Part shown: in pieces, positions 8,798 to 37,148 of the stretch
Position numbering within the stretch: the first letter of the stretch is position 1
Layout: every line of letters begins with the position of its first letter
From: Octopus vulgaris
Lineage: Eukaryota
Reading direction: 5' to 3'
Length of the DNA: 64,000 nt
Assembly (NCBI GenBank): GCA_951406725.2
Contig: OX597816.1
Location: 96,906,001 to 96,970,000, forward strand
Made by a program: the position numbers and the translations under genes
The notes under the pieces: generated by a model
Told to the model about the DNA's origin: nothing
Seen by the model: only the letters and a program-made list of their open reading frames with translations
The model's database searches: none

Positions 8798-9381
8798 TTC
8801 GCAATAATAAATCTCTGAACGAGGTATAGACAGTAACTGCACGACAATGTGAAGTATATTTGCCATCTAAATATGGCTAACCACTAAGGATGGATCTTAC
8901 TGTAGCTTGTAGCCCCAGGAGAACATCTTCTCCAGCTGGCTAATTGGCACACTTTCTGTGCCCTATCAGTATTTGTAAAGGGAGGTCATCCTTCCCTCGT
9001 CAACCTTAGTGATACGTACGGACTGCAGTTTCAGGGTATTGACCCGTCATCAGCGCACGACAATCACCGGTTTTCCATGGAAGGGTCCCAATGCAAATAT
9101 TTATATCCTTTTTCCAGTGACTTTTCGTCACTGATCTTGAAAAAGTGTATACAAGCAAAAGGATATAAATATTTGCATTGGGACGGGTCAATACCCAGAA
9201 ACTGCAGTCCGTACGTATGACTTAGGTTGACGAGGGAAAGATGACCTCCCTTTGCAAATACTGAAAGGGCACAGAAAGTGTGCCGATAGCCAGCTGGAGA
9301 AGATGTTCTCCTGGGGCTACAAGCTACAGTAACATCCACCCTTAGTGGTTAGCCATATTTAGATGTCAAATATACTTCACA
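8798..9381. mobile_element. Non-autonomous Penelope-like foldback element (~200-bp inverted arms 8848-9048 and 9182-9381, central hairpin, one-sided tail)
   Basis: Arms are reverse complements with scattered mismatches. Central 27-bp stem at 9086-9112/9157-9183. Flanked by (TA)n. Hammerhead in the left arm. Confidence 0.8.
9016..9058 (-). ncRNA. Minimal type-I hammerhead ribozyme
   Basis: Minus strand: GUGCG CUGAUGA c GGGU caau ACCC u GAAAC ugca GUC CGUAC. Core intact, stem I 5 bp, stem II 4 bp, palindromic stem III (CUGCAG), GUC cleavage triplet. Confidence 0.85.
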
Positions 9382-9397
9382 CATATATATATATAGT

Positions 9398-9722
9398 GAA
9401 GGAGCATGGCTCAGTGGTTAGAGCGCCGAACTTACGATCTTGTGGTTGTGAGTTCGATTCCCGGACCGGGCTGTGTGTTGTGTTCTTGAGCAGGACACTT
9501 TATTTCACGTTGCTCCAGTTAACTCAAATGTAGAAATGAGTTGCGACATCACTGGTGCCAAGCTGCATCGGTAATTGCCTTTCACTTGTATAACGTCTGA
9601 GGTGTGGAGAGGGGAGGCTGGTATGCATGGCCATCTATAAATAACCTTGCCCGGACTTGTGCCTCGGAGAGTAACTTTCTAGGTGCAATCCCATGGTCAT
9701 TCATGACCGAAAGGGGTCTCCT
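9398..9722 (+). mobile_element. tRNA-derived CORE-type SINE
   Basis: A-box tggctcagtgg, B-box gttcgattcc, CORE-like tgtgttcttgagcaggacacttta, and a (TA)n tail. Confidence 0.85.
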
Positions 9723-9811
9723 CAATATATACATATACATATATATATATATATATGTGAGTGTGTATAAATATATATGTGTGTGTATGTATATATATAT
9801 ATATATATATA

Positions 9812-10225
9812 TATAAAATATTATTAGAGACAAAACCACTATTTTGCAAAACAAACAAGGAAAGACTTAATCAATACATAAAATTTTAATAAATAGTCAA
9901 AAAAACCGCCACTACAATTGTTTCTTGTCTTGATCGACAATCTTCAGGTGGACTTCCAATAAGTCAGTTTCAAATTATGAAGTCATAATTTGAAACTGAC
10001 TTATTGGAAGTCCACCTGAGATTGTCGATCAAGACAAGAAACAATTGTAGTGGCGTTTTTTTGATAATTAAAATTTTATGTATTGATTAAGTCTTTCCTT
10101 GTTTGTTTTGCAAAATAGTGGTTTTGTCTCTAATAATATTTTATAATATTTTACTATAAAATTGGATTTAATCCTAAATCTGATTTTTTCCCTGTAAATT
10201 TGGATTTATTCCCTAATATTTATTA
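9812..10225. mobile_element. Penelope-like palindromic mini-element (arms 9812-9980 and 9983-10145, ~80-nt one-sided tail)
   Basis: Near-perfect palindrome with a 2-nt centre (tga-ag-tca). Flanked by (TA)n on both sides. Hammerhead in each arm. Confidence 0.85.
9909..9951 (-). ncRNA. Minimal type-I hammerhead ribozyme (intact)
   Basis: Minus strand: CCAC CUGAAGA UUGUC gaucaa GACAA GAAAC aauu GUA GUGG. The mirror copy at 10012-10053 (+) lacks one core A (CUGAGA). Confidence 0.88.
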
Positions 10226-33081: not shown

Positions 33082-35001
33082 GCACAACAGCTTCCACAAG
33101 GACATGTGTTACATCAAAAATTCTTGGTTGGGGATGCAAATCCTCTCATTCACGTACGACATAATGCGGCAGCAGCATAGAGTTGAAGCGTCCATCTCTT
33201 TCTTCTCTCAATGTAGAATGAGGAAGATTGGATGTTGAGGTAATGTAAATAAATAAATACATATATAGAGGTGAAGATGGGGGGGGGGGGCGAGAGTTCG
33301 GGACGAGGGATAAAAAATGTATAAAAAGTGTAAGTATAGAATAATATAAAAATGTAGAGGATAAAGATATAAAGAGTTGTAAGGAGATGTAAAGGGGGTA
33401 TAAAGAAATATAAAGAAATATAAATAAATGTAAAGGCATAAGGTTATAAAGTAAAAATAGAAATAGAAATAAAAGTAAAAAACCCTGATAAAAACATGAT
33501 AAAAGTGTAAAAGAATGTAAAGATAAGGGATGTATAGAGGTTACGGACCAAGCATGGTGGTCATGAGATTGATAAAATTTAGTTGTAGAATTGTCAGTAA
33601 ATCAACATTTTCGTCTGGGGACTTAATGCGTTGTAAATCAGAGCTGATGAGCATTTGATCTGGTTCCTTGAATTAAATGGACTTCTAGTACATACATATC
33701 ATCATGGATACATACACCCGCATACACGCGTACATATATGCCTCCAAGCCTATAAGCATACACACGCACTCGCGCGTAAACACGTACATAAACACACACG
33801 CACCCACACGCACGCGCGTACACACACATACATACAACAGAATATCCGCATATATACACGGACATTACGCGCGTACACGCTCACATGTATATACGCGCGC
33901 CCATCACTACATACACACACGTGTATGCCCACGCCTCTAGGTCCAGGTATAAGATATTAAAGGATGTGTATAAGAACGTATGTAAAGAATCCCGTACTCA
34001 TGTCAATACGCGCACGCACACACGGCTGTGTGTCCGTATGTGCGTGCACATATACACCCATATACACACACAGAGACATACGTGCACATGGGTATAGCTA
34101 TAAGATATCGAAGCATGCATGTACATATATGCGCGTGCACATGTATGCATGCGCATACACACGTACGCGGACGCTCGTATATTCAAAAGGTGGATCTATA
34201 GGTAAGTAAATAAACATATATAGAGGTGTAAAGCGATAAGTTAGGGGTAAGAATGAGGGTAAGGGTAAAGATTAGAAATAAAAAATACAGTATAAATTAA
34301 GAAATACAATGTAATAGTTAGAAATGAAGTATAAGAATTATAAAAATTATAAGAGTTAAGGTAAGGGATGAAAATGAAAATGAGAATAAATGGAAGTAGA
34401 ATAAAAGTAAAAATAAAATTAAAAATAAAATTAAAAATAAAAATAAATGGAAGTAGGATAAAAGTAAAATAAAAGTAAAAATAAAAATAAAATAAAATAA
34501 GATAAAAATATAATTTTGTAAAGTTTAACGTGAGATGAAGTTGGTTGAAAGTTAGAGGTGTGTGTTAAACGTAGGGGCGGGCGGGGGGAACTGAAAATTG
34601 GAAGGGTGGGAAGTGGAGTTTGGCGGTGTGCGTTCAACATCTGAGTTAGAAATGTGAAAGGGTATAGATATAGGGAATTAAAGAGACTACATAGGGAGGA
34701 TATGGGTGTAGGAGAAGAAATATTTAGGGAAAAGAAGTCATATATGGGAGACAAAATTTGTATATATAGGGGGAAAATGCAGGGAACCGTATATGCACAT
34801 ACACACACCCACACACACACACACACACGCACATGTATATATATATGTATATGTACACATACGTACACGTATGTGCACATACATACGCACACACACACAC
34901 ACACACACACATACGCACGCACATATAGGAAAGCGGGATGTGCTGGAGCCGACAGGTTGCACCGGGTGGGAGGAAATTGCATGGGGGAGTTGGTATAAGA
35001 C

Positions 35002-35166
35002 CTAAGCATTGTAGTATTTGAAAGTATTAATAAGTTTATGTATACAGGATGGTTTGAACTCTGACCTTTTGTTAATAAGATTGTGTTTGTCTTTGAATTT
35101 CAAGATGTTCAGGAGTTCTACACAGCATAGTTGGCATCCTGCTCTATTATTTAAATAAGGTGCAGC
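35002..35166 (-). pseudogene. C-terminal fragment of PLE GIY-YIG endonuclease
   Basis: AAPYLNNRAGCQLCCVELLNILKFKDKHNLINKRSEFKPSCIHKLINTFKYYNA* fits the PLE C-terminal pattern PY..CxLC..E...I....LNKRSE...CxH. Confidence 0.8.
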
Positions 35167-36868
35167 TTATTTAAGGTGTGTGTGTGTGTGTGTGGGTGTG
35201 TGTATGTGCATATACGGTTCCCTGCATTTTCCCCCTATATATACAAATTTTGTCTCCCATATATGACTTCTTTTCCCTAAATATTTCTTCTCCTACACCC
35301 ATATCCTCCCTATGTAGTCTCTTTAATTCCCTATATCTATACCCTTTCACATTTCTAACTCAGATGTTGAACGCACACCGCCAAACTCCACTTCCCACCC
35401 TTCCAATTTTCAGTTCCCCCCGCCCGCCCCTACGTTTAACACACACCTCTAACTTTCAACCAACTTCATCTCACGTTAAACTTTACAAAATTATATTTTT
35501 ATCTTATTTTATTTTATTTTTATTTTTACTTTTATTTTACTTTTATCCTACTTCCATTTATTTTTATTTTTAATTTTATTTTTAATTTTATTTTTACTTT
35601 TATTCTACTTCCATTTATTCTCATTTTCATTTTCATCCCTTACCTTAACTCTTATAATTTTTATAATTCTTATACTTCATTTCTAACTATTACATTGTAT
35701 TTCTTATTTTATACTGTATTTTTTATTTCTAATCTTTACCCTTACCCTCATTCTTACCCCTAACTTATCGCTTTACACCTCTATATATGTTTATTTACTT
35801 ACCTATAGATCCACCTTTTGAATATACGAGCGTCCGCGTACGTGTGTATGCGCATGCATACATGTGCACGCGCATATATGTACATGCATGCTTCGATATC
35901 TTATAGCTATACCCATGTGCACGTATGTCTCTGTGTGTGTATATGGGTGTATATGTGCACGCACATACGGACACACAGCCGTGTGTGCGTGCGCGTATTG
36001 ACATGAGTACGGGATTCTTTACATACGTTCTTATACACATCCTTTAATATCTTATACCTGGACCTAGAGGCGTGGGCATACACGTGTGTGTATGTAGTGA
36101 TGGGCGCGCGTATATACATGTGAGCGTGTACGCGCGTAATGTCCGTGTATATATGCGGATATTCTGTTGTATGTATGTGTGTGTACGCGCGTGCGTGTGG
36201 GTGCGTGTGTGTTTATGTACGTGTTTACGCGCGAGTGCGTGTGTATGCTTATAGGCTTGGAGGCATAGAAGTCCATTTAATTCAAGGAACCAGATCAAAT
36301 GCTCATCAGCTCTGATTTACAACGCATTAAGTCCCCAGACGAAAATGTTGATTTACTGACAATTCTACAACTAAATTTTATCAATCTCATGACCACCATG
36401 CTTGGTCCGTAACCTCTATACATCCCTTATCTTTACATTCTTTTACACTTTTATCATGTTTTTATCAGGTTTTTTTTTAACTTTTATTTCTATTTCTATT
36501 TTTACTTTATAACCTTATGCCTTTACATTTATTTATATTTCTTTATATTTCTTTATACCCCCTTTACATCTCCTTACAACTCTTTATATCTTTATCCTCT
36601 ACATTTTTATATTATTCTATACTTACACTTTTTATACATTTTTTATCCCTCGTCCCGAACTCTCGCCCCCCATCTTCACCTCTATATATGTATTTATTTA
36701 TTTACATTACCTCAACATCCAATCTTCCTCATTCTACATTGAGAGAAGAAAGAGATGGACGCTTCAACTCTATGCTGCTGCCGCATTATGTCGTACGTGA
36801 ATGAGAGGATTTGCATCCCCAACCAAGAATTTTTGATGTAACACATGTCCTTGTGGAAGCTGTTGTGC

Positions 36869-36946
36869 GCGGCTGAAGAAGGCCACAGACATACATTATG
36901 CATTGTTATAAATCTGTCTAATAAAGGCCCGAAACATATGTACCGC
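36869..36946 (+). ncRNA. Type-I hammerhead ribozyme with extended stem II (right arm)
   Basis: GCGG CUGAAGA a GGCC acaga...ucugu..GGCC c GAAAC auau GUA CCGC. Palindromic stem III (CAUAUG). Confidence 0.8.
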
Positions 36947-37148
36947 TGAATCCTTCGCATCATGTTTTTATTTTATTTTGATCAATTTACTCCACCACCT
37001 ACACCACCAAACGGTATACACAGGTGCTTATAATTATCAAGTACTCACCCCGAATTTCTATACTCAACTCTATATATATATATATATATATATATATATA
37101 TATATGTATATATATATGTATATATATATATGTATATATATATATATC

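Follow-up and report, generated by a model that had tools for sequence, protein, structure and literature searches.

The presence of three elements with the same fold-back shape in a short stretch of the Octopus vulgaris genome raises the question of how elements without DNA similarity come to share an architecture. The stretch, here termed the window, consists of 64,000 nucleotides of contig OX597816.1 (C3:96906001-96970000). It is microsatellite-rich, and the genome searched comprises 2.8 Gb in 227 contigs. The elements are E1 (window positions 8801–9381), E2 (9812–10225) and E3 (32960–37068). The original prediction assigned to them a single plan of inverted arms, a type-I hammerhead with a palindromic stem III, a one-sided tail, a hairpin at the arm junction and TA flanks, and proposed an under-described system of Penelope-like element (PLE) lineages with non-coding dependants. 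The arms, the palindromic-stem-III hammerheads, the unmirrored tails (47–78 nt, on one side only) and the TA runs on both flanks are indeed present in all three, with merely about (TA)6 to the right of E1. Despite this common shape, the three elements are of different origins. In our judgement it is highly probable that all are PLE insertions that owe their shape to a reverse transcriptase (RT)-endonuclease copying RNA into TA-rich DNA, with E2 made from a spliced leader and E1 moved in trans.

A descriptor scan of the window finds type-I hammerhead cores at 9021–9053(−) in E1, 9913–9947(−) in E2, and 33008–33077(−) and 36873–36942(+) in E3, and an additional hammerhead, outside the earlier list, at 54252–54324(−). 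Stem III is 6 nt long and self-complementary in each core (CTGCAG, CAATTG, CATATG). The four sites at E1–E3 and the additional one are far above chance: in 100 block-wise dinucleotide shuffles there were 0.02 hammerhead loci per shuffle, and none had the palindrome. An Rfam scan of the window has no hammerhead among the matches listed (150 of 275), nearly all of which are microsatellite-driven miRNA matches. Each element has an intact core, as predicted, but in E1 and E2 it is intact in one arm only. The predicted junction hairpin has no common form: in E2 it is the centre of a perfect palindrome, in E3 a fold-back that the parent does not have, and in E1 an internal feature of the family (9106–9124). 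The DNAs of E1, E2 and E3 show no cross-match, and to this extent the elements are unrelated; the parents of E2 and E3, however, encode related proteins that are about 42–43% identical.

The tail-less arm of E2 (9812–9981, minus strand, with the arm alignment starting at 9807) contains the intact hammerhead and an exon junction between 9961 and 9960. On the plus strand, a first exon (9983–10002) extends from an initiator-like start to what is the splice donor in long copies; it is followed by a second exon with the hammerhead and the 3′ arm (10003–10149), where one A is missing from the hammerhead, and by a tail of about 76 nt (10150–10225) and (TA)n. The arms 9807–9981 and 9983–10149 are 95% identical. 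Searches for the E2 family used exact patterns, and the genome matches a 32-nt pattern of the hammerhead exactly at 978 sites. In the long copies (10 regions examined), the 20 nt with which the E2 arm begins sit 1.1–3.6 kb upstream of the hammerhead, and the two parts are separated by splice sites of the form GACTT/GTAAGT...TTTTAG/ATT. E2 joins the first exon to the hammerhead exon exactly at these GT-AG sites, and the intron is gone. The exon–exon junction has 458 genome matches and the reversed control has none. Thirty position-ordered hammerhead matches comprise 17 spliced and 9 unspliced copies, with 4 too short to call. Long inverted pairs of the family contain open reading frames (ORFs) of the Hydra type of PLE. 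E2 is likely not a separate retrozyme but a retrocopy of the spliced leader of this coding element.

Donor usage points in the same direction. Among the first 30 junction loci, the first donor was used in 21 and a variant exon in 2; a second donor (+4) accounts for 3 loci, and for 4 more in a variant where the first donor GT has become GA. This GA variant is also present unspliced, in locus L196. The use of the next GT once the first is lost makes deletion a hard explanation. In addition, 27 of these 30 loci have no upstream extension and end at an initiator-like TCACTT or shortly past it. Nineteen insertions include the spacer between tail and ORF; 11 of them have an unspliced upstream pseudo-long terminal repeat (pLTR), 7 have no upstream hammerhead, and the sole spliced one, L462, has no ORF. 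Gene-bearing copies thus keep the intron. The spliced fold-back L462 enters the spacer for about 30 nt before it stops, and therefore at least one short copy derives from the ORF-side leader. An extra G at E2 junctions was considered as cap-derived and was dropped, as the partner arm can supply the G. Assembled contigs from two sets of presumed-RNA runs cover the pLTR and have no splice joint; such contigs cannot show starts or ends, and they are evidence neither way. In 9 of 20 E2-family copies stem III reads CGATTG, which is still self-complementary via G-U pairs, and this is consistent with selection for dimer folding.

E3 is a 5′-truncated PLE of the Hydra clade and is not non-coding. On the minus strand it consists of a tail-less 3′ untranslated region (UTR; 32960–35004), with the hammerhead 33008–33077, and the last ~54 codons of an RT-GIY-YIG ORF (35005–35170), with the order CxxC ... 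E ... N ... CxH. A junction hairpin (35155–35175, plus strand) is partly untemplated by the parent element. The second arm (35176–36990, plus strand), which contains the hammerhead 36873–36942, is more truncated; it is followed by a 78-nt tail (36991–37068), which stands before the ORF in full-length copies, and by (TA)n. The arms 32960–34828 and 35176–36990 are near-identical save for indels, and 100% identical over 1097 nt; the minus-strand translation of the unmirrored centre (34829–35175) is the endonuclease end. In nine of 30 loci that match this centre the frame stays open as far as the edge of the locus, and an uninterrupted 836-aa ORF is preceded by an E3-type tail in 3 of 7 regions examined. 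The family is young, with 98–100% identity among the best 40 copies, and a 24-nt hammerhead pattern has 1098 exact genome matches. Eight of 30 E3-family matches end 134–188 nt upstream of the hammerhead, around an initiator-like TCATTC, a region that may mark the start site of this family.

The parents of E2 and E3 have sequence motifs that place them in the Hydra clade of endonuclease-positive (EN+) PLEs. A single ORF encodes an RT and, at the C terminus, a GIY-YIG-type endonuclease; the 836-aa ORF has YRDD and YIG, and in the E2 family the ORF is in pieces. In the two parent families DKG is replaced by DKT (ADKTG, SDKTR), and an RWK-type N-terminal motif is present (IRWA, IKWK), as are the CxCx5C linker, CxxC and CxH (CNCRCASEC, CQLC, CIH; CTCRDKSNC, CYLC, CRH). 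Neither has CCHH, unlike Neptune-type ORFs. A Pfam scan of the Hydra-type ORFs gave no RT or GIY-YIG match; homologues carry PF26215, the top homologue also has PF01541, and there are named relatives of the element protein in Argonauta. The pLTRs carry the hammerhead, and in each family 29 of 30 matches have (TA)4 or longer at their 3′ end. The ORF and 3′ UTR together measure about 4.9 kb in the E3 family and at least 5.7 kb in the E2 family, above a size of <3 kb that is typical of Hydra elements but not diagnostic.

Several TA-associated PLE lineages had been predicted in this genome, and three Hydra families touch the window. The third is represented by a 5′-truncated copy (54070–55219, minus strand) with the additional hammerhead, an endonuclease fragment (54929–55195) and (TA)n at 54045–54069; a long copy of this family with direct pLTRs is found at L432. 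A first guess that the hammerhead at 54 kb is of the Neptune type was dropped. A decayed Hydra-type endonuclease fragment lies at 46140–46295 on the minus strand. Elsewhere, a Neptune-type PLE has intact 781-codon frames (L430:1664-4006, L431:1745-4087), an upstream ORF and many genome copies.

The inversion appears to be produced anew at each insertion, judging from the arrangement and divergence of the arms. On contig C1 the E2 family forms 60 clusters with 24 divergent and 0 convergent pairs, and the E3 family 68 clusters with 28 divergent pairs and 1 convergent pair; the spacing of inverted pairs in both families ranges from 31 nt to 14.6 kb. Among 20 E2 copies, the arms within a copy differ by 2.05 changes vs 3.4–4.3 between copies. 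Minority letters common to both arms of a copy are found in 10 columns, and arm-specific columns number 0.

Other explanations of the shared shape have been considered. The E2-type short elements might form an independent non-autonomous subfamily, in which one or a few losses of the intron gave rise to short masters that spread by way of transcripts of their own. There are hundreds of short copies of similar size, and two spliced-junction insertions that extend past the presumed start could serve as masters. However, the short copies carry variants of different long subfamilies (a one-G or two-G acceptor side, a mutated first donor), two donors are in use, and the after-tail sequence thought necessary for copying is usually missing. 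Most short copies also end at the presumed start, and thus have no upstream promoter sequence. Spread from short masters is improbable on these grounds. The long inverted arms and TA flanks recall DNA transposons with TA as the insertion site, of the Foldback kind or like miniature inverted-repeat transposable elements, but one-sided tails, variable 5′ truncation, variable junctions, precise intron loss and parents with RT-endonuclease ORFs make a DNA transposon a most unlikely source. That the inversions are chimeras of the assembly is just as hard to credit: the E3 arms are 100% identical across the 1097 nt and the junctions are known here from the assembly alone, but substitutions or indels separate the arms in all three elements, the tails end at family-fixed sites and in one arm only, and divergent pairs outnumber convergent ones by 52 to 1 on one contig.

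A further reading takes the whole fold-back RNA (arm–loop–arm–tail) as the mobile unit; in the original prediction the transcripts could self-cleave and also form long double-stranded RNA (dsRNA). Nearly the same fold-back is seen in 28 of 28 distinct top-scoring E2 loci; these, however, were chosen by a query that contains the junction, and position-ordered listings give variable junctions and many solo copies. A fixed fold-back architecture does not hold, as the C1 counts put inverted pairs at 24 of 60 and 28 of 68 clusters. The absence of an arm-specific lineage largely refutes the idea, and we regard it as very improbable. The two predicted activities compete as well. A read-through transcript of E2 is predicted to form a single duplex of about 170 bp (−259 kcal/mol) that encloses the hammerhead. 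With the ribozyme buried by the antisense arm, fold-back transcripts are unlikely to cleave themselves. The isolated hammerhead regions give no monomeric hammerhead fold in the minimum-energy model, as expected of dimer-type motifs. Single minimal hammerheads were reported not to cleave, and dimers to cleave at a low level (PMC4209133, accessible part), and PLE hammerhead cleavage is described as protein-assisted and dispensable for insertion in vitro (PMC11167929, likewise in part). Host read-through of fold-backs could plausibly form dsRNA.

E1 differs from E2 and E3 and is a retrozyme-like, non-coding, head-to-tail monomer. The full unit of 358 nt (8801–9158, minus strand, with u1 at 9158 and u358 at 8801) is the same in other copies. 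It includes a 47-nt tail (8801–8847), which is missing from the inverted arm, the hammerhead core with stem III CTGCAG, and, in the after-tail part, a hairpin (9106–9124) that has similar counterparts in related units and is possibly a protein-binding signal. The inverted part (9157–9381, plus strand) has a 28-nt piece (u47–74) and then an arm (u111–311) in which both the tail and the beginning of the core are missing. The sense arm 8801–9158 and the inverted arm 9182–9381 are 95% identical; as the inverted arm begins inside the hammerhead core, only the sense arm has it intact. In E1 copies the inverted arms usually end near u311–313, and a few reach u355–358.

A DNA search of the genome with E1 gave 5402 first-look candidates, 40 of which were scored. 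In a sample of 30 tail-selected loci, counted by eye, 19 have an inverted arm, 10 have head-to-tail u358/u1 junctions and about 9 show a 9–14-bp duplication; TA runs are found on both sides in 13 and on neither side in 13. E1 therefore has a loose TA preference and is not TA-specific. A wider group of related hammerhead units measures 348–358 nt (230 matches to a degenerate core, by a pattern that excludes E1 itself), and periods of 348–355 nt are seen. Near-dimers of E1-type units are present in L155 and L402/L403, and partial tandems are common; no long arrays were seen, and the copy in the window is a monomer. The prediction of non-coding, retrozyme-like dependants fits E1 only, E3 being a truncated coding element and E2 a spliced leader copy of one. 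E2 and E3 each have masters with RT and GIY-YIG in which the hammerhead and the tail are the same. For E1, three Hydra fragments near related hammerheads were rejected, as they looked like mere neighbours, as was an L1/Tx1-type ORF2 fragment in L198, which is a separate insertion. A possible route to E1-like monomers is suggested by an array at L467:1900-5100 (C9:50.396-50.399 Mb), where 12 tandem 250-nt units (3 inverted + 9) form a fold-back in (TA)n; the units are built from the arm, the tail and the beginning of the ORF of the E2 family and lack a hammerhead.

Some E1 copies contain 1.6–1.9-kb units with an ORF1 only, which has a CCHC knuckle, stacked up to three. An example is L201:739-6756 (C12:46.644-46.651 Mb), and others are in L298-L357. 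These inserts are bounded by a 16-bp duplication that ends at the hammerhead core; the corresponding 16-nt site (u91–106) is empty in E1 (9053–9068, minus strand). Full-length inserts have 16–18-bp duplications, and truncated off-site copies (L333, L336, L341) have 17–18 bp. The 3′ end has AATAAA, and 5′ truncation and head-to-tail stacking are present. Target-site duplication and 5′ truncation are features of Tx1/L1-type long interspersed elements (LINEs) that are thus found in the inserts. The insert 3′ motif has 88 genome matches. In 11 of the first 30, CTGANGA starts 17–19 nt downstream (background, 9 of 32,340 positions), about 8 others occupy this site in units whose core is damaged, and 11 lie elsewhere, some of these 5′-truncated and one probably a chance match; these counts are not of independent events, as PLE copying may have multiplied some composites. 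The duplicated sequence varies among host units, and the distance to the core is constant. Pfam finds zf-CCHC only in the ORF1, a homologue search has no hit at E≤0.001, and in none of 30 loci is the 3′ motif immediately preceded by an ORF2. A LINE-like, ORF1-only element that may target E1-type units 17–19 nt upstream of the hammerhead core is worth following, as are the splice-precise mini-copies.

The shared shape likely reflects the copying process rather than one mobile fold-back RNA. By analogy with the findings, available in part, of Frangieh et al. (2024, PMC11167929), the PLE protein would bind just downstream of the tail and nick both strands within (TA)n, and cDNA would begin at two fixed sites that define the tail-bearing and tail-less ends. 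The after-tail segment kept in E1 may correspond to the downstream RNA needed in that system. The two cDNAs would halt at 5′ positions and be joined head to head, which would give the inversion; E3, truncated in the last ORF codons, would be such a copy. The likely template of E2 is the spliced mRNA, copied from the tail within its 5′ leader as far as the RNA start, and this would explain the near-constant size. ORF-bearing copies keep the intron in the sample, likely since their templates are unspliced tandem or circular RNA. E1 was likely moved in trans by a PLE, also from tandem or circular RNA, and the hammerheads are likely active as dimers, in tandem precursor RNA and not in fold-back transcripts. 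We give even odds to the fuller proposal that one PLE has two template modes, with spliced capped mRNA yielding tail-to-cap mini-copies and unspliced tandem or circular RNA yielding gene-bearing copies, and that an ORF1-only LINE evolved to insert 5′ of E1-superfamily hammerheads, regenerating the ribozyme each time.

Several points weigh against this account. Three of 30 spliced loci, representing 2 insertions, reach upstream of the presumed start, and the transcription start is placed solely by an initiator-like motif and the clustering of 5′ ends. The E3 family has no spliced copy in 30 matches, and thus splicing is not general. No coding master or autonomous partner of E1 was found upstream of 3′-selected copies, near 30 GIY-YIG loci or near 30 related hammerheads. 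The arm comparison was made on top-scoring, query-biased copies (20 of 28 distinct, the 8 without the centre motif being left out), and arm similarity could also come from, or be added to by, later gene conversion. The Hydra assignment is by motifs.

The remainder of the window contains other repeats. A tRNA-like short interspersed element (SINE) head, with motifs that by eye resemble the A and B boxes, lies between E1 and E2 (9397–9725), and an inverted pair of SINE-like repeats, which we take to be an octopus SINE, is at 11968–12254 and 12899–13290 (92% over 230 nt). A fragment at 14288–14648 on the plus strand is similar to the L1/Tx1-type ORF2 end of L198. Frames at 19241–25634 on the minus strand resemble, by eye, pieces of non-LTR reverse transcriptase, with two similar copies at 22.5–23.8 and 24.4–25.6 kb; near-perfect tandem repeats (84-nt x3 and 23-nt x8) occupy 21528–21941. 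Directly right of the TA run of E3, frames at 37150–38121 on the minus strand resemble Tc1/mariner transposase by eye, and this flank may be a DNA transposon. No host gene was identified among the 74 open frames of the window, inspected by eye only.

Two puzzles of PLE transposition are still open: the retention of introns, whose significance has been called unknown (PMC8557442, accessible part), and the footprint of tail and inversion. The spliced-leader retrocopies bear on why PLEs keep introns. If the account is correct, spliced mini-insertions map the start site and splice isoforms, unspliced tandem or circular templates explain the kept introns, and a LINE that aims at ribozyme-bearing repeats represents a new target class. 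A young family that has spliced mini-copies, unspliced gene-bearing copies and also intact ORFs lends itself naturally to such tests and can supply protein for in vitro experiments. Thousands of fold-backs could also supply dsRNA for editing or silencing. Spliced PLE leader copies and hammerhead-targeted LINEs are undescribed in the titles and abstract openings searched; the subscription literature, including a 2003 paper on a PLE intron, and Repbase were mostly outside this coverage, and absence from print is not established.

The architecture itself is already known. Inverted pLTRs, tail, TA target and hammerhead are all in Craig et al. (2021, PMC8557442, in the parts accessible), where inverted 5′-truncated copies with a one-sided tail are described for PLEs in general; the PLE footprints predicted for the window match these published insertions, and the plan is not an under-described system. 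New are the spliced-leader retrocopies and the hammerhead-adjacent LINE insertions. The parents resemble the Hydra clade of that study in DKT, the RW-type N-terminal motif, CxCx5C, CxxC/CxH around E and N, the pLTR hammerhead and (TA)n targets. They differ in size (about 5–7 kb with long repetitive 3′ UTRs, vs generally <3 kb), and in tail length (76–78 nt vs 30–40); one family also has a pLTR intron on the kb scale and spliced short copies by the hundreds, which the accessible parts of that study do not mention. Penelope of Drosophila virilis shares the layout of this family, with an internal promoter, a short first exon and an intron that ends just before hammerhead helix I, and its transposed copies also keep the intron (PMC2377424, PMC4209133). 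That intron, however, is 75 bp, the clade is another, and the accessible parts of these papers do not mention abundant intron-less genomic copies.

PAc, a Poseidon element from Anolis (Frangieh et al., 2024), has two internal RT start sites that set the tail, AT-rich nicking of both strands, and a requirement for RNA downstream of the start. It was studied in vitro only, its tail is inside the ORF start and not about 50 nt before the ORF as here, and inversions and spliced templates are not addressed in the accessible part of the report. The ORF1-only inserts resemble target-specific Tx1/L1-clade LINEs (target specificity: PMC3747384, seen in part) and the ORF1-only elements called 'half-L1' in the CCHC ORF1, the AATAAA end, 16–18-bp duplications, 5′ truncation and stacking. 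They differ in that the site is fixed relative to the hammerhead core while the duplicated sequence varies, and in that no ORF2 partner is tied to them. Metazoan non-LTR retrozymes, as far as the accessible parts of the sources describe them (PMC7229834; bioRxiv 10.64898/2026.07.22.740005), share with E1 a non-coding monomer of the 170–400-nt class, a type-I hammerhead, head-to-tail junctions and a proposed dependence on PLEs. E2 and E3 are not independent non-coding tandem monomers, both being colinear parts of coding elements. E1, known from DNA alone, departs from these retrozymes in being mostly dispersed as monomers with a PLE tail and inversion.

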